64,000 nucleotides of DNA from a virus. The position numbers and the translations under genes were made by a program. Every line of letters begins with the position of its first letter. Within the stretch, counting starts at the first letter, position 1. The notes below the pieces were generated by a model. It saw only the letters and a program-made list of their open reading frames with translations. It was not told where the DNA came from and did no database searches. The DNA is taken from the IMG/VR virus record IMGVR_UViG_3300045988_080781. The stretch is one strand, 5' to 3'. Shown one piece after another: positions 1,151-63,351 of the stretch.

Positions 1151-1161
1151 CCCTGTAGGAG
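1151..1161 (-). repeat. dispersed GC-rich motif, variant copy (CTCCTACAGGG on minus strand)
   Basis: plus strand reads ccctgtaggag; intergenic. Confidence 0.5.
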
Positions 1162-1196
1162 AAGTTGCACCTGTTACATTTGCTTATGTTCTTGCC

Positions 1197-1403
1197 ATGA
1201 TTGTTAGCAATCTTACAGGTGAAACTAGCTTAACTATTAAAGCTATGAGTGATTTTATAGATAATGAAGATATTATTGATAAGGAAGGAACTGAAATATA
1301 TTCTGAACTTGTTGATAATGATTTTGACGAAGCTGGTTGGGATCCAGTTATTGAAGATGATGATGAAGATGAAGATGATATATTTGGTTATCATAATAAT
1401 TAA
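1197..1403 (+). CDS. small highly acidic protein (68 aa)
   Basis: ORF with D/E-rich sequence (…VIEDDDEDEDDIFGY); lies in the leading part of the plus-strand block. Confidence 0.4.
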   Translation: MIVSNLTGETSLTIKAMSDFIDNEDIIDKEGTEIYSELVDNDFDEAGWDPVIEDDDEDEDDIFGYHNN

Positions 1404-1440
1404 CATATTATTAATTTTTTAAATAGAGGAGATATTAAAA

Positions 1441-1896
1441 ATGAAATTTGAAGAAGTACTGAAAGAAGTATTAGACAGCATTGAAAATAAAACAAATAAT
1501 ATTCGTGCTGAAAAACATAAAGCTCTTGTTAAATCTATTATTTATAATAAAGAAGTTTCTGAACGTAAAGGTACAACTTTCCGTGATACTTTGACAACTA
1601 CTATGTCTGTACCTGAAACAGATAAAGAACTTGAAGAATGTTTCTGTGTTTCTTGTATTGCTGAAAATATGGAAATGTTTACTGATGATGAGATTAAAGC
1701 TATCGGTATTAAAAACTTTGTAGATATTGTTCAACGTATGCGTCTTATTATCAATATGCAAGTTGAACATAATATTAAGCGTTTTCAAAAAGTTATTGAT
1801 CATGCTTATTCACTTGAAAATGAGACAAGACTTGATTATAATTCTATGTCTAAAGAACAACTTATTGAAGAACTCAAAAAATATGAAGGTAAATAG
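1441..1896 (+). CDS. hypothetical protein (151 aa)
   Basis: Clean ORF preceded by agaggagatattaaaaATG; no recognisable motif. Confidence 0.6.
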   Translation: MKFEEVLKEVLDSIENKTNNIRAEKHKALVKSIIYNKEVSERKGTTFRDTLTTTMSVPETDKELEECFCVSCIAENMEMFTDDEIKAIGIKNFVDIVQRMRLIINMQVEHNIKRFQKVIDHAYSLENETRLDYNSMSKEQLIEELKKYEGK

Positions 1897-3229: not shown

Positions 3230-3230
3230 T

Positions 3231-3458: not shown

Positions 3459-3492
3459 CAGTGTCCAATCCTCTACAGGGGTGAGGACACTG
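3459..3492 (+). other. stem-loop carrying the GC-rich motif in its loop
   Basis: 8-bp stem cagtgtcc/ggacactg; the loop aatcctctacaggggtga contains an exact motif copy; intergenic. Confidence 0.5.
3470..3481 (+). repeat. dispersed GC-rich motif, exact copy (CCTCTACAGGGG)
   Basis: read directly; intergenic, inside a hairpin loop. Confidence 0.8.
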
Positions 3493-6295: not shown

Positions 6296-7579
6296 ATGAT
6301 TCTTTCTAAAGCTTTTGATGTTGAAATTTTACCTAATTTTCTTAGTGTTACATTTGTAGATATGCGTGATTATTTTAATATATTTGCAGATTGTGTCAAT
6401 GAGAAAGGTAAACCTATTCCTCTTACTGAAAAACTCCCCGTAAAGGAAATCAAAGCTCGTCTTGCTGTAGCTAAACATGACGCTTTTTATATTACAGATA
6501 AGGATGATAGTCAGTTCTTTTCTCTTATTAATTATATACAGAATACCGCTGTTAAAATAATTAATGATATTCAGGTTAGAACTGATTTATTTGGATATAA
6601 TAATGCTTCTTATGATAATCTTATGATGGCTGCTATTCTAGCTAATTGTATGAGATTTGATAATGCTAAAGATTTTATTTATAATCTTTATCTTATTAGT
6701 AAGAAGATTATTTCTCTACAAGATAATCCTGATTTAGCTAAGCGTGATTATGTTATTAATTCTCTACGTAAATTTAAGCTTCCTTATACATCTATAGATG
6801 TTATGAAAGTGTTTGCTCTTAATAAAGTTGGCAAAATGACTGATAAGAATGGTAATACTGTTTACATTCCTAAAGGTCTAAAGCAAGTTTCTATCAATCT
6901 TAAATGGTATGAACTTCTTGAATATACAATGCCCCCTATTACTGAGAAAGATAAACATTTTTATGATACTTTTAAAGATGATTTAGGTAATAGCTATAAA
7001 GGAATGACTGTTGAAGAACTTAATAAAGTTGTTAAAGTTTGGGATAGATTTATTCTCGAAGAGTATATTCCAGAAATGATGCATTATAATCTTAATGATG
7101 TTTTCATTGTTGCTGAAATGGCTCGTCTATTTCCTGACGAAATAAAACTTCGTTATAGTCTTAGTTCTTCATATAAAGTAAATCTTTTAAGTAGTTCCAG
7201 AAGTAATATTGCAAATATTCTTTTTGAAAAGTTTTATAGTGAATTTAGTGGACTTCATCCTACTCAATGGAAAGGTCAAAAGACTATTAGGACTACAATG
7301 GCTTTTAATAAAGTTATTTTTCCTATTATTAAGTTTAAGACTAAATACATGCAAGATTATCTTGAACGTATTCGTAATGTAAAAGTTACTCGTACTAATA
7401 AAGATAGTTTTGAAGAAACAATTCAAATAGGTAATTTAAAATATACTATGGCTACTGGTGGATTACATAGTCAAGATCCTCCTAGAGCTTTATATAGCAA
7501 GCATGAGTTTATGACATCCTCTACAGGGGAACAAACACTAACTCCAGATAGTTATACTTATATACATTGGGACATTAAT
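6296..7579 (+). CDS. family-B DNA polymerase, exon 1 (3'-5' exonuclease domain to the start of motif A)
   Basis: Exo I FDVE, Exo II YNNASYDNL, Exo III YNLNDV, with T4/RB69-like spacing; ends ...IHWDIN, the first half of motif A (Dx2SLYPS). The uninterrupted frame stops at 7609. Confidence 0.75.
6436..6447 (-). repeat. dispersed GC-rich motif, variant copy
   Basis: plus strand reads ccccgtaaagga, translated LPVKE inside the polymerase gene. Confidence 0.5.
7518..7529 (+). repeat. dispersed GC-rich motif, exact copy
   Basis: cctctacagggg, translated SSTGE inside the polymerase gene. Confidence 0.8.
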
Positions 7580-9641: not shown

Positions 9642-11061
9642 AGAAGATATTTATAATAAAATTGCTACTAAATGGCGTGATCAAAAAGGTATTGGTAGTG
9701 TTTATGCAATAGATCCTATTAATCCTTATGAACTTGCTATTTATATTATAAATCTTGTTCGGAATAAAAATCCTAATAGCCGTGTGTTTATTTATTGTAA
9801 TGAATATCCTCATATGGCTGAAATGGGAAAACTTGTTTCTGCAAATAAACTTGAACATGTTTCTGTTGTTACTAATAAATATATTCGTCCTACTTATAAA
9901 TATGAGTATGACTTATGTATTGCATTAGGTTTTGCTGTTTTACTTGATAATCATATTCAGATTATTAATCAAAGTAAATTTCGATTTGTAGCTTTAGCTA
10001 AATATGTTTCTAATCCTGAAATATATAAACAAATTGATAGGCATTATCCTATTATTCGTGACGTTATGACTGAAAGTCAAGCCAATGCAGTTCGTAATTG
10101 TTTCCCCGTAGAAGAATGGAGAGTTAGTCTTGAACTTGATACTGATAAAGCTGAAACATATAAAAAATATACTGATTATATTATTCAATCTATACAGATA
10201 TTTGGAAGTATGGATATGATTAATGATGCTCGTATGGGTAATAAACTTACCAATGTTTCAGGTGCTACTATTAGAGATCATATTGCTCGTCAAAATGGTT
10301 GGTCAGAATATCTTGATACAACTATTCCATTTAATAAACAAATTGATGAGTTTTATAATCCTAATGCTCTTTTAGAACGTGCTAATGTTACTTATAATAT
10401 AATGCGTGAAAGAAATCTTCTTTTAACTAATAGTGAAGAAAAGATTCCTAAAATTGTTCAAATTGTTGAAGAAAACAAGAACAAACGTATTCTTATTGTT
10501 AGTAAACATGGTGAATTTGCTCGTAAAATAACTAAAGCTCTTGTTGATGCTGGATATAATGCAGGAGATTATCATGATTGCATTGAGCCTATGAAAGCAT
10601 ATGATGCTAATGGTATTCCTATTCTTATTAAATCTGGTGTTCATAAAGGAGAACATAAAGTTGTTAAAGCTAAAGCAATTAGTTCTGAAAATCTAAGACG
10701 ATTTAACTTGTTAAAAAATGTTATATTGAATGAATCCAATACAGACGATTTAAGCCATTATTTTGGTCAGGGTAGTATAAATGTACTTTCGATTAAAAAT
10801 GCTTCGTCTGTAGAGCTGGAATGTACCGCAGACGTGATCATTTTCACCTCAGCCTTATACGCCGATTGGAAGGAGTTCAAGTATCGGTACAACAAGTTAA
10901 AATTTGTTACAAATCCTATTCTTATTTATAAACTTTATTATGTTGGTACTATCGAAGAAAGAGAAGTTTTGACTAGTAAAGAAACTGATACTTATAAAAT
11001 ACATGAAAAAGAAAAACTTCTTGTATTTGACGAAAATACTGGGCAAATTGTTTGTAGATAA
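9634..11061 (+). CDS. hypothetical protein (475 aa), weak resemblance to a helicase C-terminal-like domain
   Basis: Long clean ORF overlapping the polymerase stop codon; no Walker motifs seen. The segment ILIVSKHGEFARKITKALVDAGY...DVIIFTS is loosely SF2 domain-2-like. Contains motif copy FPVEEW. Confidence 0.5.
   Translation: MNKEDIYNKIATKWRDQKGIGSVYAIDPINPYELAIYIINLVRNKNPNSRVFIYCNEYPHMAEMGKLVSANKLEHVSVVTNKYIRPTYKYEYDLCIALGFAVLLDNHIQIINQSKFRFVALAKYVSNPEIYKQIDRHYPIIRDVMTESQANAVRNCFPVEEWRVSLELDTDKAETYKKYTDYIIQSIQIFGSMDMINDARMGNKLTNVSGATIRDHIARQNGWSEYLDTTIPFNKQIDEFYNPNALLERANVTYNIMRERNLLLTNSEEKIPKIVQIVEENKNKRILIVSKHGEFARKITKALVDAGYNAGDYHDCIEPMKAYDANGIPILIKSGVHKGEHKVVKAKAISSENLRRFNLLKNVILNESNTDDLSHYFGQGSINVLSIKNASSVELECTADVIIFTSALYADWKEFKYRYNKLKFVTNPILIYKLYYVGTIEEREVLTSKETDTYKIHEKEKLLVFDENTGQIVCR
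10104..10115 (-). repeat. dispersed GC-rich motif, variant copy
   Basis: plus strand reads ccccgtagaaga, translated FPVEEW. Confidence 0.5.
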
Positions 11062-14262: not shown

Positions 14263-15441
14263 ATGGGCAGAGGTGTAGCTAATAGTAAACTAACTAAAGA
14301 TATGATACTTTCTAAAGTATCTCAACAACTTATTGCAGCAACATATCTTGATATACCTATTGAAACAGTTGAATGGTGTATTGAAACTGGTAAAACTATA
14401 AGTAGTCCTCTTCGTGAAGATAATCATCCTAGTTTTGGTTTTGCTTTTAATAATCGTGGTCAACTTAAAGCTAAAGATTTTGCTGGTTATTTTTGGGGAG
14501 ATGTATGGGATATTATAGCATATGTTCTATCTGCTGTAGTTGAAAGAGATATTGATGTTACAAATAAACATGATTTTATATTTTGTCTTAAACATTGTGC
14601 TTATACATTTCGTAATTATATTTATGGTAAAGAAAAAGATGAAAGAATTAATGCTGATATTAGAAAAGGACTTGTTAATATTAAAAGTAAAAAGAATATT
14701 ATAGAAATAGTTCCAAGAGGTTGGAATAATAATGATAAAGACTATTGGAAACAATTTGGAATTAATCTTAATTTTCTTAATACACATTATGTTTATGCTG
14801 TTGATCAATATTATATTAATAGAAAGATTAATCCTGAGCCTAAATATTATTATAATCCTCATGACCCATGTTATGCTTATTTATTAGGTCAAGATAGTAA
14901 AGGTATATATAATTGGAAACTTTATTTCCCTAAGAGAAGTCATAATGAAGTTAGATTTATAACTAATTCTAATCATATTGAAGGCGTTCTTAATCTTGAT
15001 GGATTTGATTATGATTTTATTATTATAACTAAATCTACTAAAGATAGACTAGCTCTTGAACAGTTCTGTTATGACTATCCTCTACGGGGTGACAACCATG
15101 AATGTTACCGAATTGGAGTTATTAATATTCCTCATGAAACTCATGAACTTACTCAAACTGAATATAATTTTATTCGTTCTAAATGTGCTAGAAATGGTAA
15201 AATTATAAGTCTATTTGATAACGATCGTACAGGATATATGTGTGCCATCAAATATCGTGATAAATGGAATATTCCTCCTTGTATTATACCTCATGAATAT
15301 GGAGCTAAAGATTTTGCTGAACTAAGAAGTTTATACAGTCCTAGTACTATAATTCAATATATTAACGAAACAATTAAACTATTTAATAACAGAGATGAAG
15401 AAATTGAAATTATTGGGTATCAAACAGAGATGCCTTATTAA
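14263..15441 (+). CDS. DnaG/TOPRIM-like DNA primase candidate
   Basis: The N-terminus SSPLREDNHPSFGF...GDVWDII aligns to the DnaG zinc-ribbon block CPFHxExTPSFxV...GDxIxF, but the Cys/His ligands are replaced. TOPRIM-like IIITKSTKD and LFDNDRTG (DxDxxG). Confidence 0.5.
   Translation: MGRGVANSKLTKDMILSKVSQQLIAATYLDIPIETVEWCIETGKTISSPLREDNHPSFGFAFNNRGQLKAKDFAGYFWGDVWDIIAYVLSAVVERDIDVTNKHDFIFCLKHCAYTFRNYIYGKEKDERINADIRKGLVNIKSKKNIIEIVPRGWNNNDKDYWKQFGINLNFLNTHYVYAVDQYYINRKINPEPKYYYNPHDPCYAYLLGQDSKGIYNWKLYFPKRSHNEVRFITNSNHIEGVLNLDGFDYDFIIITKSTKDRLALEQFCYDYPLRGDNHECYRIGVINIPHETHELTQTEYNFIRSKCARNGKIISLFDNDRTGYMCAIKYRDKWNIPPCIIPHEYGAKDFAELRSLYSPSTIIQYINETIKLFNNRDEEIEIIGYQTEMPY
15079..15089 (+). repeat. 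dispersed GC-rich motif, exact copy
   Basis: cctctacgggg, translated PLRG. Confidence 0.8.
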
Positions 15442-16357: not shown

Positions 16358-17558
16358 GTTATATAAAAGAAATAATAAAGGCGAACCTTACGGTTGGGAA
16401 CTTACTACTGATAGTCCTAATTATATTACTATTAAATATGGTATATTAGGAAAGAAATATACTTCTGATACAATTTTGATAAGTAAGTCTAATATTAAGA
16501 CTGAAGTTAAAAGTCGTATTAATCAAAAACGTAAAGAAGGTTATCTTGAATATAATGAAGTTCGTGATGATACGTGTAGTTTCCCCGTAGAGGAATGGAG
16601 CAATGAAGAGTTCATTCGCTATCTTGATACATATCTTCCTACTAATAAAACTAATACTAATAATAACAATATTCTTCCAATGCTTGCTAAACTTTATACT
16701 ATAAATTGTTTCAAGTATTCTGATGTATTTATTGGTCAATGGAAGATTAATGGACTTCGTTGTTGTATTACGTTTAATAATGATGGAGATATGTTTCATC
16801 CTTATACTGTTCGTATACAAAGTCGTGAAGGAGAAGTATGGAATGGATTAACTGATTTAAAGGATTATCTTGTTGAAGTTATAGATACCGATGTTATTAA
16901 TTATCTTATTAATTATAATATCGCTCTTGATGGTGAGATTTATCTTCCCGGTTATAAAGTGAATATGATTAATCACTTTGTTAAAGATCCTACTTGTCCT
17001 GAACATAAACTTTTACAATTCTGGTGTTATGATATTGCTGTTGATAGTATGATTCAATCTAAACGTATTGACTTTATGTTTGATAAATTTAAAAGTCATA
17101 TTATTAGATTTAATGATCGTAATGAACATCTTAATAATAAAGAAAAATTTCTTATTCTTCCTTATTATGATGTTACTAATGATGAAACTGCTCTCAAATA
17201 TCGTAATGAATTTATTGATAAAGGTTTTGAAGGTCTTATAATGCGTAATCCTAATGCTGAATATAATTATGGAAATCGTTCTGTTAAGATAATGCTAAAG
17301 TATAAAGATCATACTGATGGTAAATTTGAAGTTGTTGATATTTATCCAGAAAAGACTCGTGATTTACCTATTATTCGTTGTCGTAATGATATTAATAATG
17401 AAACTTTTGAAACTCGATTAAGTATTCCTCAATATTCTCAAAAAGAAGTTCTTTATAATAAAGAACAATACATTGGAAGATATGTTTTTATTTCCTATGG
17501 AGAGCGTAGCGGAGTTGGTCGAGTTCCTTTCCATATTAAAGAAGTTTATTTTATATAA
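16344..17558 (+). CDS. ATP-dependent polynucleotide ligase (covalent nucleotidyltransferase superfamily)
   Basis: Motif I KINGLR (a KxNG variant of KxDGxR), motif III ALDGEIYLPG, motif IV EGLIMRNP, motif V VKIMLKYKD. Confidence 0.6.
   Translation: MEPIKLYKRNNKGEPYGWELTTDSPNYITIKYGILGKKYTSDTILISKSNIKTEVKSRINQKRKEGYLEYNEVRDDTCSFPVEEWSNEEFIRYLDTYLPTNKTNTNNNNILPMLAKLYTINCFKYSDVFIGQWKINGLRCCITFNNDGDMFHPYTVRIQSREGEVWNGLTDLKDYLVEVIDTDVINYLINYNIALDGEIYLPGYKVNMINHFVKDPTCPEHKLLQFWCYDIAVDSMIQSKRIDFMFDKFKSHIIRFNDRNEHLNNKEKFLILPYYDVTNDETALKYRNEFIDKGFEGLIMRNPNAEYNYGNRSVKIMLKYKDHTDGKFEVVDIYPEKTRDLPIIRCRNDINNETFETRLSIPQYSQKEVLYNKEQYIGRYVFISYGERSGVGRVPFHIKEVYFI
16583..16594 (-). repeat. dispersed GC-rich motif, exact copy
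   Basis: plus strand reads ccccgtagagga, translated FPVEEW. Confidence 0.8.
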
Positions 17559-43100: not shown

Positions 43101-46100
43101 TAAAGCATTATTTACATCTTTAATTAAAGAAGTAATTTTAGCATCACTAATTGGTTCAGGAATACCTCCAACAAGTTTAAATTTAGATTTAGGATTAGTT
43201 GCAAAATAATTAATAAGTTTATTATAAATATTTTTAAGTTTGTTATAATCAGTAATACCAGAAGATATTATATCACGCATTATAGAATCAATATTAACAT
43301 ATCGTTTTTGATCACTACCTACAATATTATGAGTTTCAATATATTGATTAATGATAGCTTCTATAAAAGTATCAATATTATTATCTATTGCATTAACAAG
43401 TCTATTAGCATAAAAATTAATAGCACTATCAAGTCTTGTATAAATATCTCTAATAAATGGAAGTTGAATAGCTTCCTCAAATGTCATATCTCTAAATATA
43501 TAATCAATAAGAGCATTTTGATATTCATTCATTACACGATCTGTAAGTATAGGACTAGGACTAACTTTTTCTAATTCTTTTCTAACTTTTTCTTTTTCAG
43601 CAGCATAATCAAAATTAGGATTTTTATAATAATCAATACTATTTGAAGCAATAAGTTTATTACGTTCTTTAGCTAATTCATTTTCTTGATCTAATTCAGA
43701 TCTTCCAGCTTCAGCTTCGCTTCTAAAATAATTACGTTCATCTTCAGTTAAATCAAGATCAGATTCATCAGGTTTACTAACTACAACAGCATTACCATCT
43801 ACTTCATCAACTTCCTTTACAGGGGTAGTTCCTTGTTGTCCCCCTGTAGAAGAAGAACCTGATGTATCAGTATCTGTATCAGTATTATATCCGCCTTCAA
43901 GAGGATCTTCCTCTAATTGATCGTCTGGATGAGGAGGTGTAGGTATACCAACTCCATCAGTATTAATTCCATTTGTAGTTGTAGAAGGAGTTTGACTTTC
44001 TTTACGAAGTGTTGCTGTAATAAAATCATTAACACGAGAATTATCATAACTAAAAAGATCATATTTTTCAATAGCTTTTTCAAGTTTTTCTTTAACAGCA
44101 TCAGATAAATTATTAGGTCTTCCGTTAAGATATTCAATTACATCTTTATTATCAATTGATTCAGCTTCTATAATATCTTTTATATCTTTAAGTGCACTTT
44201 CAAATTCATTTTTACGAAAAGCTTCATTTATAGCATTAACATGATTAACTTTTTCTTTAATTTTATCTTTAGTAACAAGTACAGATTCTCTAGATATAGC
44301 AGCTAATTCTTTAGCATTAACTTCAGATCTTTTAGCTAAAGCAAGTTGTTCATTAATATTAAGTAATTGAGTAAATAGTTCTTCAGATGTACCAGCAATA
44401 CGAGGAGAATCAGTAAATGTTAATTTATCTCTATATTTAGTAAGAGCATCTTTTATAGTATTATAATGTCTTAATGTTTCAAGATATTGAGTACGATTAA
44501 TTTCTCCATTTTTATAAGATTCTTCAAGTTTATTAATATTTTCTTCAGTAGTATTAATTTCTTCTTCTATATAAGCATCTTCAACACTTCTAGCAAGAAG
44601 ATCTGTAGAATTAGCAAGTTCATTATCTGTTTCTCTTATAGAAGATAAAGTTTGATTATATGTATTAGTATATTTATTAGCTTCACGATTTGCTCTTTCA
44701 GCAGTAAGTCTATGAGTTACATTATCTACAGCAATTTGTTTAGCTATTTGTGGAGAAGTAGTATTTTGCATAACATTATTTAATTCAACATCATACATAG
44801 TACTTATATATTCCATATCAGCTAAAGCTTTATTTGTAAAATCAGCATCTTGACCTAATTCAGTTGCTTTAACAAATTCAACTAATGAATCATAATTACC
44901 AGCATTTTTAGCATTAATAGTAAGATTAGTTAAAAATTCATTTCTAATAGATTCTTTAGCATATTCTACTCCTCCTTCAGGAAGATCTTCATACATTATA
45001 TCTCCATTTTCATCTCTAACTAATTCTCCATCAATATTAGTAATAGGTCTATTAACATCTTTACCTTCATTAGTAAGTTTCATTCTTTCATTAAAAGTAT
45101 TAAATGCAGCAACTCTTGAATCAATTTCAGCAGCTCTATAGGAATCTAATACTCCTTGAGCTCTTTTCATATTAAATTCTCCAGCATTAGGATTATTCTT
45201 TTTTTCTTGATTATCTTGATATTTATTATATCCATAAGTAACTGCATCACCAAGACCTTGAAAAGCAATACCTCCGAGCCATCCCCAAAATCCAGCTTCC
45301 CATGCTTCAGAATCTTTAAGATAATCAAGATGACTTCTAACTTTTTGAGAAGGATCTAATTTATTTTTAACATCATCAATAGCTTTTGTTTGAGCAACAT
45401 ATTGCCACATTTCTTCAACACCTTCAGTAGCTTCAGTAGCAATAATTTTATAATTTCTATTTTTAATAAAATCAATAAACTTATTATATCCTTTAAGAGG
45501 TTCATAAGATTTTCCTGTAATAGCAGAAATAGCTTTACGTTGATGTTCTCTAAGAGCAGCATTTAAAGGAGAAGATTGCGAATTACCTCTCCAAAGATAT
45601 TTAAGAGCTTTAAGTTGCATAGCATCAAAAAGCATAAGTCCCATATCTTTTTTAAATACTTCATCAGCAGATTCTCCAGCTAATATTCTAGCAATTTCTT
45701 TTTTATCTTTACCTTTAAATTCAGGATTATTTTTAATAAATTCATTAAATTGTGCATCAGTCATATTATCAAATGCACTTTCAGTATTAATTATAACATT
45801 ATTATAAGTATCTCGAGCTTCCATATAATTTTCACCAACACGAGATATAGCAGCTTGACCTAATATTCCAATAGCTTCTTTTCCAGCTTTAACACCTTTA
45901 ATAAAATTAACACTATTACCTAATTTAGTAGCAAGAACAGCATTTCTAATTTTATTAGCATATTTAGTAGCAGTAATAGCTTTACCTAATAATCCAACAC
46001 CTTTAGCAATCATGCCACTAGGTATCATTAAACTAATACTACTAGCAACACTAGGAAGATTATTAAACCACCATCCCCAATCTCTAAAAGCAAAAGATTT

Positions 46101-49167: not shown

Positions 49168-51540
49168 TTATTTAAGTTTAATACGTTTACCACATCTTGC
49201 CATAAATGTAATACCTTTTTGAGTATTTATATATCTACGTCTACGTGGATCGAATTGTACACCAGTATCTTCATATATTCTATCATCAACATTAGGATTA
49301 GCACCTTGAATATATCCAAGACTATTATTAAAGTTTCTACGTGCTTCTATACGAGCAATAACATCATTAACAGTTCCACTAATATTACCCATTAAATTAC
49401 CAAGATTATTTGCTTTAGCTTGATATTTAGCATTATTAATAGCAGCATCTTGAATAGACCATCTATTAAATCTATCTGCATTAAGACCATCAATATTAGA
49501 ATTAAGTTTACGTTCAGTATTAATACGTTCATCTTGAATATTAAATTTATTTTGCCAAGATTTATTCTTAGCCATAGTAGCATTATTTCTTGCATTAATT
49601 TTACGAGCTAATGCTGTACTTGAAGATGCAGTATTAGCATCTATATCACGAGAAATATTTTCAACATTACGATTAATTTCATCAATTTCAGCATTATTAT
49701 TATAATAAGTTTTAAGTTTAAGATGTGGTTGAAGTCTAAGATCAGGAGATTTAAATTTATTAAGATAAGCATTAGTACCAAAGAAATCACCAAGACCAGC
49801 AGCTAAATTAACACCAGCACCAATCCAATCTCCTAATGTAGGACCTTCATTAAATTTATCACGAACAGTACCTTTTAATGCAGCACGTTTTTGTGCTTCA
49901 GGAACAATTGTTTTACTAATAGGAGATAAATCTGGAACTTTACCTTCAATATCAAATTTATCAATTTTAGGTACACTAAAAGGAGTCATCTTTTCAAGAA
50001 CAACATCACCTTTATGATTTTCAGGAATAAAACCAGAATATCTATAAAAATCAAGTGCTTCAGGACCATAAATACCAAAAGGAGTACGAACATTTGTCAT
50101 TTGCCCCCAACTACCACCATTCTTGTCAGTAAAAGTTCCAAATTGATTATCACCACTATTACCTGAAGGAGTAATAGAATTATAAAGTTTTCTATTAGCA
50201 TCCCAAAAATAATTTTGAAATTCTTTTTGATATTCTCCTACACGAGGATCAACAATGGCTCTGTTAGAAGAAGGATCATAACCTAATTCTTCTCTAAGAT
50301 CAGCATGTTTTCTAGCCATTTCATTACCTTTTTCAAGATTATGAATAGCCATATCTCTAGCAGCATTATCTCCACCAACACTTTCTAACCATAATTGCCA
50401 AGGAGTTTTATTAGTTTTTACATCAGTAATAGTCTTTTTACCTCCAGGATTAAACTTCTCTCGTGTTTGTTTCCCCGTAGAGGATGTGATAGAAACATCA
50501 GTTCCAGCTTTAGCTTTTCTTCTACCACCACATTTTTGTTTAGGTCTAGGTGTATAAATAAGACCGTTTTTAACATTTCCATTTATTTGAATCATACCAC
50601 CATCAGATTTTTTAGAAGGATATACTTCATAATCTTGAACAAGTTGTCTTCTATATTTATGACCTTTAGGAGTAACTTTAAGTATAGCTTTTTTAAGAGC
50701 TTCAGCATCTCCTTTATTTATAGCTTCTGCTATTTCAGGAAATGCTTTTCTTATATTACCTTGCTGATAACGAGCTTGTGCAGCAAGAAATCTAGGTCCA
50801 TGACTAACAGTATCAGCAGAAGCTTTACCATAAATATCAGCATAATTAGACATAATAACTTCATCATCTTTACGAAGATGTGTTACAGCACTATCATTTA
50901 TGTCTTGAACAGGAATACCTTTTTTAGCTTTTTTAGAAAGTTCAGGATGACCAGATTTAAAATCAATACCAGGACCTATAGTTCTACTATCATAAGGATA
51001 AGCTATATTTCTTTTAATTCCTTTACGATCTGGATTTTCAAATTTATATAAATTACGAATAGCATAACCATAAGGTAATTGTCCAGTCTTTTTATTAATT
51101 ATTTTAGGTTCAACTATATTTATCTCTTTATTATCATTATCTTTTGTTAAATAATCATATGCTTTAGCAATATTAGGAAATAGTTTTCTAAGAGTTTCTT
51201 TAATACCAAGTTCTGCTTTAGTACCATCATCATTTATTTTATTTCTATCTTTAAAATTCTCTTGAACTTGAAAAACTTTATCTGGATTAGCGCCATTAAG
51301 AACAGCTTGAGCAGGACTTGTATTACCAGTTCCAATTCCTTTTTGAGCAGATAAAACTCTAAGTTCTTTAGGTTTCATCTGAATTATTTCTCCATCTTCA
51401 ACTTCAAGTCCTGTACGAGGATTTTTACCAATATCTATTCCACCTTGACTATGTTTTCTACCTTTCATATAATAAAGATTTCTACCAAGAGGAATAGCTA
51501 CGCCACCACGAACAACATTAGGAATTTTAGTTTTGCTCAT
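49168..51540 (-). CDS. large virion-module protein (790 aa), function unknown
   Basis: Clean ORF; contains a motif copy translated SSTGKQ. Confidence 0.55.
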   Translation of the reverse strand: MSKTKIPNVVRGGVAIPLGRNLYYMKGRKHSQGGIDIGKNPRTGLEVEDGEIIQMKPKELRVLSAQKGIGTGNTSPAQAVLNGANPDKVFQVQENFKDRNKINDDGTKAELGIKETLRKLFPNIAKAYDYLTKDNDNKEINIVEPKIINKKTGQLPYGYAIRNLYKFENPDRKGIKRNIAYPYDSRTIGPGIDFKSGHPELSKKAKKGIPVQDINDSAVTHLRKDDEVIMSNYADIYGKASADTVSHGPRFLAAQARYQQGNIRKAFPEIAEAINKGDAEALKKAILKVTPKGHKYRRQLVQDYEVYPSKKSDGGMIQINGNVKNGLIYTPRPKQKCGGRRKAKAGTDVSITSSTGKQTREKFNPGGKKTITDVKTNKTPWQLWLESVGGDNAARDMAIHNLEKGNEMARKHADLREELGYDPSSNRAIVDPRVGEYQKEFQNYFWDANRKLYNSITPSGNSGDNQFGTFTDKNGGSWGQMTNVRTPFGIYGPEALDFYRYSGFIPENHKGDVVLEKMTPFSVPKIDKFDIEGKVPDLSPISKTIVPEAQKRAALKGTVRDKFNEGPTLGDWIGAGVNLAAGLGDFFGTNAYLNKFKSPDLRLQPHLKLKTYYNNNAEIDEINRNVENISRDIDANTASSSTALARKINARNNATMAKNKSWQNKFNIQDERINTERKLNSNIDGLNADRFNRWSIQDAAINNAKYQAKANNLGNLMGNISGTVNDVIARIEARRNFNNSLGYIQGANPNVDDRIYEDTGVQFDPRRRRYINTQKGITFMARCGKRIKLK
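50473..50484 (-). repeat. dispersed GC-rich motif, exact copy
   Basis: plus strand reads ccccgtagagga. Confidence 0.8.
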
Positions 51541-52399: not shown

Positions 52400-55300
52400 C
52401 TTACATTACGTTGTTTAGTTACAATACAATCAAGAGTTTCAAATTCAATTCGTTTATTATCTGCATTTTTAAATATAAAACGAACTACAATTTGATTACC
52501 ATAAATTCTTCTTAATCTATCACTTGGTTCACCTGAATGAGCAGGTATATTATTACGGAAATAATTAAAGTTCCAATTACCAAGTTCAAAATAAGGAAGT
52601 TTATATCTATTATAACGATTAACATCTCCTGTAGTATCAAGACTCATATCAAAACTATCACAATATTCATTAAATATACGAAGAATATCACCACTATATT
52701 TAGGAAGAAGTTTATTAGCATAACCAATATCAGTCCATACTTCTTCCTCTACGGGGGTGATTTCATTATCAGGAGAATCAGGCACAAGATACTTATCAAG
52801 TTTTTTAACTTTATATCTGATATATTCAAGAAATTTTATAGCTTCATATTGATCATTAAATATAACATCTATATAAGAATCATAATGACTATTACCATTA
52901 GCTACAGTATAAAATGTGCCATTACTTTTAGCTTTAGTAAGCATATTATTAAAACGTCCATAATTACTTTCATGATTATATTCATAAAGACTTTCACCTT
53001 GAATAAGTCTATTCATGTAAGTTCTAACTTTAGTATTATAAGCATATTTATAATTATAATCATGTAAACTTATAAATGTTTGAGTATCATTATGAAAACT
53101 TAAAGTATCAACTTTATTACCATATTCAGCACAAACTATAAGACGATTATTATATTTATCATTAGCAAAACGAACTTTATTTGGAAGAATTTTTTCAAAC
53201 CAAAGACGAACATCTTCATCTATATATTTAAGTTGTTTTTCATCAAATTTAAAGAATCTATGAAAATCATTATTATAAAATACATAACCAAACTCACCAA
53301 TAATACTTGCAAATCTATCTTGAATACCAGCAAATCCTTTATCAGAAGTATATACTTCAACATATTTAGTATCAAATGCATCTGGCATACTTAATCTAAC
53401 ATCTCGATCTTGAGTTTGAAGAGCAGCAGTTCTATCAAACATAAACATACTATGTTCAGTATGAGCAAGAAGATAAAGTCCAATACCTATAAGATTAACA
53501 ATTTTACCTTTATTTTCAGTAATAATTTTATAACCATTAGGTTGAAAAGTTCGCCAAGCATTTACATAAGATTCATCTTGAATAACATCACTACGACGAA
53601 TAGTTTTATCAAATTGAGTAATATTTCTAAGATTATCATCATAAGCCATTAATAATTTATCACTAACAGTTTCATCAGGAAAAACATATTTATACATATC
53701 AAGAGTTTGAATAGGCATAACAGGTCTACCCGGAAATAGAACATTAGGACCACCATGGAAATATAAAGAATCATTTGGAAGTTTAGCTATTCGTTTAGTA
53801 TCTTTCTCATCATCAAAACGTTCTTGATTATTAATATTAAGAATAAATAATTCTTGCTTAGGTCTATTATTAGCAACTTTACCTTCCATAAATCTATGCC
53901 AATAACAAATATGTTGAACAAGTCTTTGAGGACTTACAACATTATAAGAACCTTGATTTAAAGCATAATATCTACAACCATCAGTACCTTTAACAGTAGT
54001 CCATTGAGGATCCCATCTAGCACCAGTTCTTCTAAATACAAGAGTACTATTATATGTTATATGACCGGGATAAGAACCATAAGTATTAAGTTTTTGATCT
54101 TCTTCTTCATAATTAAAAAGTTTAATATTATTAATACGAATAAGCTCTTTATTAGGATTAGTATAAATATTATTATTTAAAGACCATATAGTAGCAATAG
54201 CATTACGTTGATAAGTTTGAGCATTAAATACATTTGGATTCTTCATTTTAACACGAGTTCCTTTACCAGCATTATTAGGAGCATCACCTATAAGTATTTC
54301 ATATTCATCTACAGGATATATAATTTCATCATAATTACCAATTGGAGTTACAGCCATAACTTCTGGAAGATTAAGACTTGCACGATATTCAGCAACTTTA
54401 TTTGTACCTTGATCTTGCCAAAAACCTCTATAATCAAATAAAGCCCATCTAAAACTAATAGCATTAAAATCAACTTTAATTTTATCAGAAGTATTTAAAT
54501 CATCACTATAAACATAAAGAGTTTTATTAGCATTTTCAGTTGCTTTAGGACCGCCTGTAGAGATATTATTATTACCATTATAATAATTAGCTCTACCGTT
54601 ATAATCTCCTAAGAATTTATCATCAAGATTATCAAGATCGTGATTAGTAGGATGATCATCAATATCTTCTGAAGCATCTGTTTCTGAAGCAAATCCTACA
54701 ACACGACTCATAGGTTCAGCTTTTTCATAGCTAAGATAATAACCTATATATCCACGATTTCTAAGTTCATTAATAAATAATTCATCATCAATTACACAAT
54801 CAATACCAAATACTAATGGAATAGGTCTTTCATTTCCTTGTGCAGTAAAACTATACATAGGAATACGATGAAATGTTTGACCTGAATTATTAGCATAATA
54901 GCCTAATATAATATTTTCAACATATTGTCCATCATCTTTAATATCAAGTTGAAGTCCATTATTACCTCCATTATTAATGAATTGATAAAGTTTATAATCT
55001 CTCCATTTAGAAGGATTATTATTATACATATCAAATATAACAGAAAGTTGTAGATCTGTAGGAATAGGATTAGTAGGAGTTCCGTTATTACCATTAAAGT
55101 AAGAACCTAAAGTAGTATTAAGATCAATATCATATTTCCATTTAGAATTAGAATTAGGAATATGAAATCCATTAGTACTATGACCAAATTTATCAACAAA
55201 ATGAATATAAAAAGAATAAACTTCTCCGGGAATAAGAGTATTATGCGCTAATCTACTTTCATAACTAAGTCCATAATCAAGCATAGGACTATATGCAGTC

Positions 55301-57132: not shown

Positions 57133-58080
57133 TTATTTATTACGACGACCAAAAGTAAATATCATAAAAGCAGACTTAAATAAATCATCATTAATAGGTT
57201 GTTGAGCATCAAGTAAAACACTACGTTTAACTTTTTCAATATTTACTTTCCATGCAACAAAAGGATTAAGAGCTTCACTAGCAGCAGTTAAAGTCATAAC
57301 AGGATGTTTATATCCACGTGTAAGCATTCGATACATACACCAATTAGTAATAGCTTCAATAAGTAAACCATTATCAGGAATCTTTGGAACTTCACAATGA
57401 TAATAATTACTATATTCAGTATCAACATCTAATCTAGCAATAACAATATATGGAATATCAAAATTAAGTTCTATATAATTTCCAGAAATAACATAATTTC
57501 GATTAGGAAGTTGATCACTAGGAATATGAGTATGATGAATACGATGCATACATCTATAGTCATAACTTCCTGTATGTTCAGTCCAAGTAAGAGTTTTATC
57601 TGGAAATAAATGAGTATTAACTACTTCACGAGTATGAGATTCAGAAACATGACAACAATCATGATGATGATGTTTAGTTTCAAATCCACAATCATCAACA
57701 TGAACATGAGGATGAGGTTCGCAAGTATGACAATGATGTCCATGATGATGTCCGTGATGATGTATATCCTCTACAGGGGAACAACCACCATTTCCACATT
57801 TATTAAGACCACATCGAGGATCTCCAGCTCTTGGAATTAAACATCCATTAGGATCATAAACTCTCATTTCATCATAATTAAGACAACAAGGACTTAATGC
57901 AAGTCTATGATTAACTTCAAGTCTATGACATTTAGGAATTTTTCTAAGACATTTAAGTTGATTCATAGCATCAATAGCCCATGCAGCAACTCTAGGAATC
58001 CAATCACTATTATCAGGATTGAAATCATTATCTATCTTAGCTATAATTCGTTCAATAGAAACAACTTTTTCGTTAGCCAT
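57133..58080 (-). CDS. His/Cys-rich putative metal-binding protein (315 aa)
   Basis: HHHGHHHGHHCHTCEPHPHVHVDDCGFETKHHHHDCCHV tract; carries a motif copy translated SPVED. Confidence 0.55.
   Translation of the reverse strand: MANEKVVSIERIIAKIDNDFNPDNSDWIPRVAAWAIDAMNQLKCLRKIPKCHRLEVNHRLALSPCCLNYDEMRVYDPNGCLIPRAGDPRCGLNKCGNGGCSPVEDIHHHGHHHGHHCHTCEPHPHVHVDDCGFETKHHHHDCCHVSESHTREVVNTHLFPDKTLTWTEHTGSYDYRCMHRIHHTHIPSDQLPNRNYVISGNYIELNFDIPYIVIARLDVDTEYSNYYHCEVPKIPDNGLLIEAITNWCMYRMLTRGYKHPVMTLTAASEALNPFVAWKVNIEKVKRSVLLDAQQPINDDLFKSAFMIFTFGRRNK
57768..57779 (+). repeat. dispersed GC-rich motif, exact copy
   Basis: cctctacagggg. Confidence 0.8.
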
Positions 58081-59727: not shown

Positions 59728-61170
59728 TTAATTCCTTTCTAATGCACTAATTCTTGATTCATGATTGCTAATTGTAGATTCAAGAGTACTAATTTTATTA
59801 GTAATATTTTTAATATCAAATAATTCAGTAACTTTAAGACTTGTAAAAGTTAATTCAAATCTAGCAATAATTCCATTATCAATAGCCCAATAAGTATCAA
59901 TATAAATAGACTCTCCAACTTTATTAATAGCTAATGCTTTAGGTTTTCCATAACCAATACTAATTATAACAGCATGGGCTTGCATATTATTATATAATTC
60001 ATCAATACTTTCAACATACATTATTTCAGAGAAATAACGAGTCATAATATCACCATTTGCAGATATAGCTAAAAGTTGTTCTTTAGTAGTAATTTCTTTT
60101 GCGGCTACAAGACCATATTGTTCAAAATATTGATTATTATTATTAGCATCAGGATAAGTTTCAGAATCATATTCAAGTTCAATATCATTATGCCATCCAA
60201 CTAAATGTATATTATAAACTGTAGCTCCTCCAAAACTTGAAAAAATACTTGAAAGCTCATTAGATAATTCAGTTTTAGTTACATAATCACTTAAATCAAC
60301 ATCACCTCCAGTAACAATAGAATCAATTCTTTTATTAATAGATGTAATATCATTTTTAATAGAATTAATAGAAATATTTATAGTACTAATATCAGAAGTA
60401 TTTTTACTTACATTATAATTAAGTCCGTTAGCAATATTCTCTGCATTTTGAGCTTTAAGATTAGCTTGTTCTATATTATAATTTAATTGTTCAATAGTAG
60501 CATCATATTGAATAAGTTTTTCATTAAGTATTTGAACATCTTGTTCAAGTTTATCAACTCTATCGGTAAGTCCCCCCGTAGAGGATCCACCACCAGAACC
60601 TTGTTCGAGTTTCTGTACTCTTTTATCAATAGCATCAAGACTACTTGTTAATGTAGTAATATTCTTAGTATTAGCATCTACTTTCTTAGTAAGACTTTCT
60701 ATATCAATACTATCAACAATAGTTTCAATTTCATTTACAGTTTCAGATAAATCATTAACAGTAGTATTAAGAGTATTATATAACGAACGAAGCTCAACAA
60801 GTTGGTTATTAAGATTACTAATTTGAGAAATAGCATCATCAACACCATCAAGTTGAGCTTCAATTGCAGTAATGTTATCTTGAACAGATTTAATTTGATT
60901 TTCTAATGACTTTATGCTTTGATATAAATCATCATATCCACCAGCAGAACTAGTATTATATATAGCTAATAATCTAAGTCTATTAATAGGACTAATACCG
61001 GGAATAGTAAATAAAGCAGCCGCCAATGTAAGAGAATAGTTCGGAGAACCATCATCATTATATACAATATAAGAGAGTTTCTCCGAACTACCAGTAGCAG
61101 CTGCTTTAACTTTAGCTTGTTGAATTTCAGCAGCTAAACGCTTAATATCAGCAACAGTTAAAGCAGCCAT
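59728..61170 (-). CDS. coiled-coil protein (480 aa), fibre-like or scaffold-like
   Basis: Long heptad-like N/Q/L/I-rich middle region; carries a motif copy translated GSSTGG. Confidence 0.5.
   Translation of the reverse strand: MAALTVADIKRLAAEIQQAKVKAAATGSSEKLSYIVYNDDGSPNYSLTLAAALFTIPGISPINRLRLLAIYNTSSAGGYDDLYQSIKSLENQIKSVQDNITAIEAQLDGVDDAISQISNLNNQLVELRSLYNTLNTTVNDLSETVNEIETIVDSIDIESLTKKVDANTKNITTLTSSLDAIDKRVQKLEQGSGGGSSTGGLTDRVDKLEQDVQILNEKLIQYDATIEQLNYNIEQANLKAQNAENIANGLNYNVSKNTSDISTINISINSIKNDITSINKRIDSIVTGGDVDLSDYVTKTELSNELSSIFSSFGGATVYNIHLVGWHNDIELEYDSETYPDANNNNQYFEQYGLVAAKEITTKEQLLAISANGDIMTRYFSEIMYVESIDELYNNMQAHAVIISIGYGKPKALAINKVGESIYIDTYWAIDNGIIARFELTFTSLKVTELFDIKNITNKISTLESTISNHESRISALERN
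60574..60585 (-). repeat. dispersed GC-rich motif, exact copy
   Basis: plus strand reads ccccgtagagga. Confidence 0.8.
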
Positions 61171-61176
61171 AATAAA

Positions 61177-62982
61177 TTACTCTTTAGGAGTATAACTAAT
61201 GTTATTAGTATCGTTGTAAGTTAATTCAGTACCATTAGTATTGAATGGAAGTGTAGCAAAACCTACATCAACTTTATCCCATTTAGATACCATAGCTATG
61301 TTTACTGTACTACCATCAGTCTTAGTACCAACTATACTATCATGATTTGCTAATATAATAGCTTTTCTATTAGGATTCTGTTCATCAGAAATATCAGTCC
61401 ACTGAACAGTATTTGCTAAAGTAGCATCCTGTGCAGCATCCTTTTCTTCACGAGCAGTCTTTTCAGCTTCAAGATTAGTATTTGTTTCATTCAATGAAGT
61501 CTGCAAATCACCAATCTGTTTAGCCTGATTAGCAATAGCTTCTGCATTAGCGGCAATAGCAGGACGAATTTCATTGTTAATTCCACCGTTAATAGTATTG
61601 AAACCATTAGCTACGTTAGTATTAATGTTTTCAAATCCATCAGCCATATTCTGATTAACAGTAGCAACAGTTTCGTTCAATGCTCTAATATCAGTAACGT
61701 TCTTTTCAACTTTACCTTCAAGTTCAGTAACTTTAGCAGCTACATTTTCACCGGCAGTTTGAGTTTCTTCAAGACGAGCTTCCATTCCATTTACTTTTTC
61801 TTCAAGAGCATCCAAATTAGAATGATCTTCTTCAAACATAGGAATGTACTTCTTATCATTCTCTTCAAGAACTACAAGACGATTGTTAATGCTAGTATTA
61901 GTAGCAATAGCTCCTGTCTTCATATCTTCAATAGTCTGATCAATACCATCGCAACGAACTTTTAATTTAGCAATATCAGTACCATGAACATCATCAGTTG
62001 CCTGTAATGTTTCAACAGCAGCTTTCAATGCTACAATATCCTTACGATTAGTATCTACACCGGCAGTATTAGAAGCAATTTCAGCAGCAAATTGTTTATG
62101 ATCTTCAACAACTTTTGCCAAAACAATACCATGGTGATCAACCTCAGCAGCTATTTTACCGATAAATTCACGATTGTTAGTGCAAGCCTGTTTAACTAAT
62201 TCAATACCTTTAGCATTTTCAGCAATAGCTTGATCCATTGCAGCAATCTTAGCAGGAGTAACAACAGCTTTCAGTTCATTCAAGCTATTTGCAGTTTCGT
62301 CACATTTAGTTTCGATAGTTGCAACTTTCTTATTAACTTCAGCAACAGCAGCATCAGTAGCAGTCTTGTTGTTAGTAACCTGACCCTGTAAATTAGCAAT
62401 AGCTTTGTAGTTTTCACAAACAGTAGCAGCAACTTTATCAAATTCGCAACGACCAATCTTATGGGCTTTAAGTTCATTAATAGCAGCAGCATTATCATTA
62501 ATCTGAGTTTGCTGATTGTTATGTTTACTTTCAAGAGTAGCAATATTAGTATTGATTGTACTAATGCTACCTTTAATGTTGGCAATTTCAGTTTCATTTG
62601 TAGCCAACCGACCGCTAGCGTTATCCATGCGTTCATTAAGAACAGCAATATCTGCGGCATTTTTCTGAATAAGTTTAAGCAGATTCATACAACAACGAAT
62701 GTTACAAGTTGCTAAATGGATAATTGTAAATTTAGTTTGTTCAGGAAGATCAAGAGGTCTAATGATACGTTCCAGCTCATTAATTGCATACTGCATTTGC
62801 TGATATAAAGTATCACTATCTATGTCTTCCTCAGTAGGACAAAATGGGTGATGATGGTGATGATGATGTCCACAACCATAATCATGATTACAATCACAAT
62901 CATGAGCTGGATGACAAGGATTACATCCATTATACTTATCCATCCAATCTGTTCTAGGTGATTTACCTTCAATAGGATCCAT
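61177..62982 (-). CDS. coiled-coil protein with an N-terminal His/Cys-rich tract (601 aa)
   Basis: N-terminal CNPCHPAHDCDCNHDYGCGHHHHHHHPFCP, followed by a long alpha-helical coiled-coil-like sequence. Confidence 0.5.
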   Translation of the reverse strand: MDPIEGKSPRTDWMDKYNGCNPCHPAHDCDCNHDYGCGHHHHHHHPFCPTEEDIDSDTLYQQMQYAINELERIIRPLDLPEQTKFTIIHLATCNIRCCMNLLKLIQKNAADIAVLNERMDNASGRLATNETEIANIKGSISTINTNIATLESKHNNQQTQINDNAAAINELKAHKIGRCEFDKVAATVCENYKAIANLQGQVTNNKTATDAAVAEVNKKVATIETKCDETANSLNELKAVVTPAKIAAMDQAIAENAKGIELVKQACTNNREFIGKIAAEVDHHGIVLAKVVEDHKQFAAEIASNTAGVDTNRKDIVALKAAVETLQATDDVHGTDIAKLKVRCDGIDQTIEDMKTGAIATNTSINNRLVVLEENDKKYIPMFEEDHSNLDALEEKVNGMEARLEETQTAGENVAAKVTELEGKVEKNVTDIRALNETVATVNQNMADGFENINTNVANGFNTINGGINNEIRPAIAANAEAIANQAKQIGDLQTSLNETNTNLEAEKTAREEKDAAQDATLANTVQWTDISDEQNPNRKAIILANHDSIVGTKTDGSTVNIAMVSKWDKVDVGFATLPFNTNGTELTYNDTNNISYTPKE

Positions 62983-63009
62983 AAGATAAAACTTTTTTAG
63001 ATTAATACT

Positions 63010-63351
63010 TTACTTACTAAAATTAACGCCTTCTAAAACTTTAGATTCAGCAGCGTCTAATGCCTCAACAGGATCAACTCCTTCAGCATTTGGATCAGCT
63101 CCACTATCGTCATTATTTTCATTATCAGGTTGAGTAGGTTCAGATGGTTGTTCCTCTACAGGGGAACTTCCACGAAGAATCATAGTCAAAGCTTCAAGTT
63201 CCTCAATACGTTGTTCAAGAGCAGGAACTTTAGAAGCATTAGCTAAAGCGCTTGTATATTCTTTATCAAACTCAACGAGCAATGCGTTAAGTTGAGCATC
63301 AAGAACTCCTTTAGCTAAAAGATTATTACGAATAAGATTTAATTTGTTCAT
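63010..63351 (-). CDS. small acidic protein (113 aa)
   Basis: ORF; carries a motif copy translated SSPVEE. Confidence 0.45.
   Translation of the reverse strand: MNKLNLIRNNLLAKGVLDAQLNALLVEFDKEYTSALANASKVPALEQRIEELEALTMILRGSSPVEEQPSEPTQPDNENNDDSGADPNAEGVDPVEALDAAESKVLEGVNFSK
63163..63174 (+). repeat. dispersed GC-rich motif, exact copy
   Basis: cctctacagggg. Confidence 0.8.

Follow-up and report, generated by a model that had tools for sequence, protein, structure and literature searches.

A strand-polar DNA word with lineage-specific versions is maintained throughout the genomes of Intestiviridae crAss-like phages

The DNA analysed here, referred to as the window, is a stretch of 64,000 nucleotides (nt) from the IMG/VR virus record IMGVR_UViG_3300045988_080781. 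It derives from a crAss-like phage that shares about 72% identity with Carjivirus communis (p-crAssphage), confined to the conserved genes. Phages of the crAss-like group dominate the human gut virome, and the biology of their replication, packaging and defence is barely known. A GC-rich motif, CCTCTACRGGG, is dispersed over the window, within genes that include those for a family B DNA polymerase, an SNF2 ATPase, a DnaG-type primase, an ATP-dependent DNA ligase and a giant RNA polymerase (RNAP), and also between genes (Table 1). A preliminary description of the window had drawn attention to this over-representation. Here we report what goes beyond that description: the motif is a trait of the family Intestiviridae, it is kept at conserved positions, and it occurs in versions that co-evolve.

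Twelve exact copies were found on the two strands of the window, and dinucleotide shuffles yield an expectation of 0.01, in agreement with the rough estimate made earlier. With up to one mismatch allowed the count is 18 against 0.23 expected, ten on the plus and eight on the minus strand, and about 20 copies are present once variants are included. Under a third-order Markov model trained on the window the motif 11-mers reach z scores above 200, so the background does not explain the count. The conserved unit is longer than the 11 nt first described. A T is found at position −1 in 20 of 20 copies, with W at −2 and RRA-C after the core, and orthologous copies share an asymmetric conserved footprint of about 14–16 nt. 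The motif unit is WT-CCTCTACRGGG-R, a strand-polar word of about 16 nt. It has neither a palindromic body nor terminal inverted repeats, a single window copy lies in a hairpin, and Rfam covariance models run against the whole window gave no match at the gathering threshold.

A profile search (nhmmer) of the window recovered the copies and added the variant at 21185, which was outside the profile training set. Among the variants and look-alikes listed in the preliminary description, this one is genuine and carries a 2-nt deletion, those at 41475 and 46393 are at noise level, and that at 29953 is borderline. The positions first listed were mostly right, except that 33347 and 63163 are end coordinates (of the copies at 33337–33347 and 63153–63163) and that three were slightly offset (29944 for 29953, 41476 for 41475 and 43841 for 43842). 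Four of about 21 copies are intergenic (1151, 3470, 26186 and 26257) and the remainder genic, as the original tally of 17 in coding sequence had it. The motif had also been taken to be independent of reading frame. Several frames are indeed used, but their use in real open reading frames (ORFs) is uneven: all ten antisense genic copies in the window read P-V/L-E/K/R-E/D, and the six sense copies read S-S-T-G, with one exception (P-L-R-G).

Table 1. Motif copies and associated structures in the window, and related repeats in other crAss-like genomes
Feature	Position	Strand	Context
Exact copy CCTCTACAGGG	3470..3480	+	Intergenic, 57 nt upstream of ORF 3537-3863 (gp12 homologue)
Exact copy	7518..7528	+	DNA polymerase B N-terminal exon; sense, S-S-T-G
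Exact copy	15079..15089	+	DnaG-type primase (gp21 homologue); sense, P-L-R-G
Exact copy	16583..16593	-	ATP-dependent DNA ligase; antisense, P-V-E-E; column of p-crAssphage 18157(-)
Exact copy	26257..26267	+	Right arm of inverted pair, gene-block convergence point
Exact copy	33337..33347	+	Giant RNAP gene (26441-40054, minus strand); antisense, P-V-E-D
Exact copy	36917..36927	-	Giant RNAP gene; sense, S-S-T-G
Exact copy	50473..50483	-	gp47 homologue (49168-51540); sense, S-S-T-G
Exact copy	52746..52756	+	gp49 homologue (52396-57126); antisense, P-V-E-E
Exact copy	57768..57778	+	gp50 homologue, His-rich; antisense, P-V-E-D
Exact copy	60574..60584	-	Coiled-coil protein 59728-61170; sense, S-S-T-G
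Exact copy	63153..63163	+	ORF 63010-63351; antisense, P-V-E-E
One-mismatch copy CCTTTACGGGG	6436..6446	-	DNA polymerase; antisense, P-V-K-E
One-mismatch copy CTTCTACGGGG	10104..10114	-	SNF2 ATPase; antisense, P-V-E-E
One-mismatch copy CCTTTACAGGG	26186..26196	-	Left arm of inverted pair, 30 nt past gp41-family ORF 25503-26156
One-mismatch copy	43814..43824	+	gp45 homologue; antisense, P-V-K-E; +/- inverted pair with 43842
One-mismatch copy	43842..43852	-	gp45 homologue; sense, S-S-T-G; column of p-crAssphage 44953(-)
Two-mismatch copy CTCCTACAGGG, flanks correct	1151..1161	-	Intergenic, directly past gp06 homologue; E=6e-4
Two-mismatch copy CCCTTACAGGG	40517..40527	+	gp45 homologue; antisense, P-V-R-E; E=6e-4
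Degenerate copy, 2-nt deletion (CCT--ACGGGGAAACAAAC; with flank ttCCT--ACGGGGAAAC)	21185..21203	+	DUF932 protein (gp33 homologue); sense; nhmmer E=0.034
Borderline look-alike CCTCTAAAGGG	29953..29963	+	RNAP gene; antisense, P-L-E-E; E=0.63
16-bp terminator-like hairpin	26208..26243	+	Enclosed by inverted pair 26186/26257
AGCGN tract, L121	28189-28208	+	
AGCGN tract, L121	44928-44947	-	
AGCGN tract, L159	4224	+	
AGCGN tract, L160	36186	-	= MN917146 86186
45-nt repeat, cr127_1	1768, 11911, 19698, 28697, 42039	-	
45-nt repeat, cr127_1	11355, 28870, 42231, 59324, 82341	+	

Many of these positions are shared with p-crAssphage, whose genome holds 32 copies of CCTCYACGGGG, extended as (c)catCCTCYACGGGGrgt, 14 on the plus and 18 on the minus strand. 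Copies of the two genomes occupy identical alignment columns in the DNA polymerase (window 7518, p-crAssphage 10169(+)), SNF2, the ligase and gp45. The primase copies (15079 and p-crAssphage 16626(+)) lie in the same variable loop, at most nine residues apart, and the gp50 copies share a loop in reversed orientation. The intergenic copies upstream of gp12, past gp06 and past gp41 correspond as well, 3470 to p-crAssphage 6022(+), 1151 to 3335(-), and the pair 26186/26257 to the pair 28077(-)/28173(+) downstream of gp41. The comparison was widened to 36 IMG/VR loci around the SNF2 ATPase, with SNF2 protein identities of 34–98%. In all 36 the motif is the top GC-rich 10-mer, at recurring positions: the SNF2 site is the deepest-conserved (36 of 36 loci), the polymerase copy at 7518 is found in 35 and the intergenic copy at 3470 in 31.

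Whole genomes from the two other Intestiviridae subfamilies carry versions of their own. PhicrAss002 has 25 copies of ctCCTYTAYGGGGGAa (CCTYTAYGGGGGA) and cr8_1 has 24 copies of tacatacCTTTTACGGGGSGGCTAGA (CTTTTACGGGGSGG), and both retain the primase position and the SNF2 site, the latter in their respective versions. Copies within one genome change in concert between lineages, and the copy number stays at 24–32 over three subfamilies. The motif is a family trait of the Intestiviridae with lineage-specific versions, not a peculiarity of the window genome, and the versions offer a simple marker to distinguish subgroups of the family. Nothing comparable was found in genomes of the Steigviridae (PhicrAss001) and Suoliviridae (cr10_1), of which at least one, PhicrAss001, infects Bacteroides. 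This absence indicates a lineage-specific reader.

Other dispersed words were noted in these families. The Crevaviridae genome cr127_1 (NC_055886; L161/L162) lacks the motif and contains ten copies of an unrelated 45-nt GC-rich repeat, gtaTAATGGCCACAAGGGCGAGAGGTGTTCCGAAATTCGT, on both strands and mostly intergenic; three of three close pairs are inverted, one of them near the gene-block convergence, and the repeat may be a functional analogue of the Intestiviridae motif. In PhicrAss001 (MH675552; L165/L166) the 9-mer CTTCTGGAG occurs 27 times where 1.7 are expected (38 times as an 8-mer), 13 sense and 14 antisense and in several frames, so its enrichment is also at the DNA level. It has no extended flank, close direct neighbours are permitted, and AGCGG is nearly absent from that genome (1 copy in 100 kb). 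This 9-mer and the k-mers of cr10_1 were considered as equivalents of the motif and rejected, as they follow different rules.

Selection targets the DNA letters and not the peptide, as the preliminary description had argued. All 22 distinct contexts among the 36 loci have xxC CCC GTA GAG GAA at the SNF2 site, and flanking codons vary freely. In these genomes CCC accounts for 5.8% of proline, GTA for 20.5% of valine and GAG for 11.5% of glutamate codons; rare codons are fixed at the sites and common codons for the same amino acids are used elsewhere. The orthologous codons are CCC ATA AAG GAG (PIKE) in PhicrAss002 and CGC CCC GTA AAA GAA (RPVKE) in cr8_1. They track the motif version of each lineage and thereby indicate that the DNA requirement reshapes the protein. 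A motif-less outgroup has AAT TTT GTA GAA TAT, aligned without a gap, and the alignment suggests that the site arose in place, with no insertion. In p-crAssphage, 11 of the 32 copies are intergenic and the genic ones occupy all five stop-free frames. In the four genomes over which all rules of arrangement were computed (the window, p-crAssphage, PhicrAss002 and cr8_1), about 20–50% of copies are intergenic, a 3–6 fold enrichment in each, and together with the frame preference in the window this agrees with copies being placed where the peptide they encode does no harm.

A rival account in terms of peptide selection for SSTG or PVEE linkers could appeal to the two readings that dominate the genic copies of the window. 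The intergenic share, the five frames and the rare codons contradict it, just as the Markov scores contradict compositional chance, and the recovery of the motif from independent assemblies and a sequenced isolate contradicts an assembly artefact; we regard all three as refuted for practical purposes. The conserved SSTG and PVEE peptides of these proteins should accordingly be annotated with caution, as by-products of selection at the DNA level. A signal that dictates codons and amino acids in polymerase, primase, ligase, SNF2 and virion RNAP marks an interaction that is essential or strongly advantageous.

An alternative suggestion was that a tiny GC-rich element tolerates in-frame insertion, and more broadly the copies might be a selfish or neutral short repeat, spread in an ancestral genome and homogenised by gene conversion, with no function for the phage. 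That appearance is given by the GC-rich composition of the repeat, which contrasts with the AT-rich genome, and by the location of copies in variable loops of proteins. A few lineage-specific copies match insertions of 5–12 residues (in gp21, RNAP and gp47), and the opposite orientations in gp50 also fit. RecT is encoded as well, and the avoidance of direct neighbours described below shows that copies matter for recombination. The insertion element, which had been an impression from pairwise alignments, failed a background control, as only 3 of the 15 copies specific to one lineage fall at an insertion, not significantly above the background of 7.5% (p=0.10), and it failed the gapless comparison with the SNF2 outgroup. 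Among 22 p-crAss-like strains (84–98% identical) no presence/absence polymorphism of copies was detected, in spite of 96 mosaic breakpoints; an apparent extra copy in L141 is not informative, as it falls in a segment without homology. The stable copy number, the retention of positions down to 34% protein identity, and the lack of terminal inverted repeats and of a consistent hairpin speak equally against a selfish repeat, and a tract of 14–16 nt is very short for sustained conversion across such divergence. We consider this explanation improbable.

The same strains show dense mosaicism, with 96 identity change-points in the replication module of about 21 kb (22 sequences, loci L130-L158). These breakpoints are no closer to motif copies than random positions are, in a test that is local and that would miss a diffuse stimulation such as that of Chi, which acts over kilobases. 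A module-exchange linker or localized recombination hotspot is disfavoured by this result.

The statistical behaviour of the motif does resemble that of Chi and uptake sequences, as had been remarked early on, and a signal read by the host, whether an AddAB Chi, an uptake signal or a binding site of a host protein, was weighed. It was not supported: in a scan of 185,579 species genomes, multiple copies of the extended motif occur solely on mis-binned crAss contigs of 89–98 kb, and no Bacteroidales chromosome has multiple copies. These contigs have the size of complete crAss-like genomes and several motif copies each; they are CAUWBF010000007.1 (98 kb; L182/L240), CAVAGO010000001.1 (97 kb; L239), CAJJKI010000006.1 (89 kb; L234) and those of the 'Mycoplasma sp.' bin ERR260232-bin.11 (L176/L198/L225/L229). 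Their presence in metagenome-assembled genomes labelled Clostridia, Clostridiales, 'bacterium' or Mycoplasma probably results from mis-binning. Against a host signal also stand PhicrAss001, which infects Bacteroides too and is without the motif, the length of the motif compared with Chi sites of 5–8 nt, the lack of breakpoint enrichment, and the Gam-like nuclease inhibitor that the phages encode.

A further hint of Chi came from tandem AGCGN pentamer tracts (for example AGCGTAGCGAAGCGGAGCGT), of which p-crAssphage and PhicrAss002 have two each; each of the four lies directly after a motif copy. GAAGCGG/AGCGG and GCGAAGC mini-hairpin words are found in the tracts, and the former presumably resemble Firmicute AddAB Chi sequences. 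As a general feature the tracts had to be discarded, since only two genomes have them, at two apiece, the window lacks them and AGCGG shows no enrichment. A host-read signal is, on this evidence, very improbable.

The arrangement of the copies bears on a role in gene expression. Genic copies are divided 34 sense to 34 antisense, and intergenic ones 16 co-oriented with to 13 opposed to the neighbouring genes. Mixed orientation with no bias to gene direction had been reported for the window, and a promoter or terminator role doubted; both statements are upheld, the latter for conventional promoters and terminators. An initiation site for the giant RNAP of the phage, built like a T7-style element with an initiating G run and active in both directions to yield sense/antisense or primer transcripts, would nonetheless agree with an asymmetric motif of about 16–25 nt ending in GGGG and with its intergenic enrichment. 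The promoters of T7, T3 and SP6 change in concert with their polymerases, as the motif versions do between lineages. The crAss virion RNAPs have no known promoter, and in p-crAssphage a −/+ pair (95745/95865) lies exactly between the divergent gp87 and gp88. Orientation that is random with respect to genes is difficult to reconcile with such a start site, and so are the antisense orientation of the deeply conserved SNF2 and ligase copies, the pair at the convergence point of the window, which points antisense into both gene blocks, and a GC-rich core, unusual where a site must melt. In the phi14:2 study, moreover, early transcripts of the virion RNAP had no common upstream motif. A start site for the RNAP appears hardly probable, a little less so even than the conversion-homogenised repeat.

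Spacing and orientation follow rules of their own. The coefficient of variation of the gaps is 0.68–0.69, compared with about 0.94 under random placement, and each strand has one regularly spaced copy per 5–8 kb. Neighbours less than 2 kb apart are inverted in 27 of 27 cases, those at 2–4 kb in 22 of 29 and those beyond 4 kb in 18 of 38; outside these genomes, lineage L124 provides one exception. Copies on the same strand are at least about 1.9 kb apart, and their gaps are more regular than in a random model with a 2-kb hard core (Fisher p=2e-4); close inverted pairs are tolerated. In the replication block of the window, orientation alternates perfectly once the 21185 copy is counted. These neighbour rules fit a directional function, for which a nearby copy in the same direction would be redundant.

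The strongest concrete rival is a strand-specific processing site, at which the strand bearing the motif is nicked by a phage enzyme (known from T5, tf and phiKMV-type phages) or DNA synthesis is started (plasmid ssi-like, with a dedicated primase), copies on both strands serving forks or repair that move in either direction. The known phage nick motif WACTRTGAC of tf and Rembedalsseter has 13 sites per genome, 88% of them genic, is conserved in 61 phages and lies on one strand only. A polar site of about 16 nt, present about once per 3.5 kb, mostly genic and conserved in the family, is comparable, and the regular provision of copies on each strand, the head-to-head pairs near gene-block junctions and the phage-encoded DnaG-type primase are in accordance with nicking or priming. 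DnaG-type primases, on the other hand, normally read trinucleotides, which tells against priming. Nick motifs are strictly one-stranded where the present motif is balanced, and opposite-strand copies 27–35 bp apart would, if both were nicked, come near to double-strand breaks. No GC- or AT-skew asymmetry was found around 93 sites, and a stretch of about 35 kb in PhicrAss002 lacks one orientation altogether. Nicking or priming is in our judgement unlikely but deserves serious consideration, ahead of the RNAP start site and the homogenised repeat.

Some copies are associated with local structures. That at 3470 occupies the loop of a hairpin, which proved real with perfect arms of 9 bp (3458–3466/3485–3493) and not 8 bp as first described. 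The copies at 26186 and 26257 do flank a terminator region, as had been noted; taken together, the pair, its flanks and the terminator-like hairpin between the copies make up a palindrome about 85 nt long. The extension of this hairpin by the pair looks like a secondary use. The plus block ends with the ORF at 25503–26156 (+), whose product joins a domain of the N4-gp49/Sf6-gp66 family to a 'crAss001_48-related' domain at the C terminus. It is 79% identical to p-crAssphage gp41, a level unusually high for this pair of genomes.

Two other genes adjoining copies are noteworthy. The gene for the family B DNA polymerase is divided into an N-terminal (6296–7609) and a C-terminal part (8652–9641, a weak DNA_pol_B match), and the copy at 7518 is about 90 nt upstream of the break. 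Between the parts sits an ORF with a GIY-YIG domain (7882–8589), most likely an intron or free-standing homing endonuclease, and p-crAssphage is without such an insertion. The gp50 homologue (57133–58080, minus strand; tail tubular/ring protein 1-like) has a His/Cys-rich segment, CGNGGCSPVEDIHHHGHHHGHHCH, adjoining the motif-encoded PVED, and p-crAssphage gp50 has no His run at the matching position.

A role at genome termini was suggested by a terminal repeat of cr8_1 that ends in a copy, and was dropped when the repeat turned out to be a 55-nt assembly overlap. The p-crAssphage culturing study (bioRxiv 10.1101/2024.03.20.585998) gives no terminus coordinates; it reports 92,394 soft-clipped nanopore read segments, 99.9% of them mapping back to the p-crAssphage genome.

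Taking these results together, we consider it on balance probable that the motif acts in cis as a strand-polar recognition site on the DNA and co-evolves with a reader, probably encoded by the phage, with a role in DNA metabolism and not in gene expression. Every member of the Intestiviridae would maintain about 25–32 copies genome-wide, recognised by a sequence-specific protein whose co-evolution with the site would generate the lineage versions. The process served might be replication, recombination, protection, packaging or the marking of phage DNA as self. If the whole chromosome has to be supplied with sites at intervals, they would be placed wherever there is tolerance for them, in intergenic DNA or in the SSTG and PVEE frames; where necessary they would impose rare codons and amino-acid changes on the protein concerned, and close inverted pairs could secondarily have become hairpin terminators. 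The proteins that track the motif in phyletic profiling are RecT, gp19, SSB, gp22 and gp23.

Several observations weigh against this interpretation. No reader was identified, and RecT, gp19, SSB, gp22 and gp23 have no informative family matches. The phyletic argument is weak, since cr127_1 lacks the motif and still has ORFs of similar size in syntenic positions. Gene conversion among copies could also explain concerted change with no reader involved, and the reader might be encoded by the host, with few sites in its chromosome. The neighbour rule may be a mere avoidance of direct-repeat deletions in a phage that encodes RecT, uninformative on function, and the data do not separate this reading from a directional function. 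Coverage is not obligatory either, as shown by the stretch in PhicrAss002, which spans 35.5 kb without a minus-oriented copy.

Two candidate readers were rejected. Motif pairs adjoin both repL genes of p-crAssphage, but the window phage, PhicrAss002 and cr8_1 have no RepL. The gp23 homologue was considered as a helix-turn-helix reader; it has no Pfam, PHROG or NCBIfam match and five homologues only, and an AlphaFold2 (AF2) model of gp23 (predicted local distance difference test, pLDDT, 72) gave no significant PDB match.

A more specific form of the recognition-site interpretation may be put forward tentatively, as a possibility that we find attractive but would not bet on. The Intestiviridae, to which the most abundant virus of the human gut belongs, might possess a genome-wide 'self-tag' system, in which a phage-encoded reader of a polar word of about 16 nt, present every few kb on both strands, would steer protection from phage or host nucleases, loading of the replisome or a translocase, or packaging selectivity to phage DNA. 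The versions could then isolate co-infecting lineages, and the 45-nt repeat might be the tag of the Crevaviridae. As PhicrAss002, with its 25 copies, has been cultured, direct testing is feasible. No description of the motif was found in the literature by sequence or by topic, including papers on the crAss virion RNAP, on culturing and on long-read sequencing, and a prior mention elsewhere is possible.

Repeats in the genes of AT-rich genomes are known from the Rickettsia palindromic elements and the GC clusters of yeast mitochondria, which are likewise GC-rich or structured and leave the frame intact. These are palindromic insertions of 50–150 nt and polymorphic, whereas the crAss motif is about 16 nt long, non-palindromic, stable and mostly without change of length. 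With the T7, T3 and SP6 promoters it shares an asymmetric word of about 20 nt with a G-run end, present in many copies and changing in concert at specificity positions; promoters, however, are co-oriented with genes and mostly intergenic, and the motif is randomly oriented and mostly genic. Chi sequences (RecBCD/AddAB) are also polar, over-represented words of DNA metabolism that occur about once per few kb. In contrast to the motif, which is about 16 nt, phage-only, unskewed and not enriched at breakpoints, they are 5–8 nt long, host-wide and strand-skewed per replichore. The phage nick motifs (T5; phiKMV; tf/Rembedalsseter) agree with it in their dispersion at about 1 per 3.5 kb, in a genic share near coding density and in their group-wide occurrence. 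The crAss motif differs in being strand-balanced and longer, in its tendency to alternate and in its lineage versions.

The motif appears to be statistically closer to uptake sequences than to anything known in phages. The uptake signal sequences (USS) of the Pasteurellaceae and the DNA uptake sequences (DUS) of the Neisseriaceae have a core of about 10–12 nt within an extended consensus, and are hundreds-fold over-represented, evenly spaced and found in both orientations. Within genes they occupy tolerable frames and loops, their dialects shift in concert at orthologous positions, and inverted pairs double as terminators. Core length, an extended consensus, over-representation, orientation balance, even spacing, the preference for certain frames and loops, dialects and terminator pairs are all shared by the crAss motif. 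It differs from USS and DUS in belonging to a virus and not to a naturally competent bacterium, with no uptake machinery, in not being multi-copy in host genomes, and in avoiding same-orientation neighbours within 2 kb. By its kind the motif falls among over-represented DNA signals that are spread over whole genomes. The combination of a phage genome, strand balance, distance-dependent inversion, co-evolving versions and dominance over codon choice is not known to be matched by another system. If the copies are sites of nicking, priming or self-recognition, they would constitute the first strand-balanced example in phages and a new case of co-evolution between a signal and its reader.

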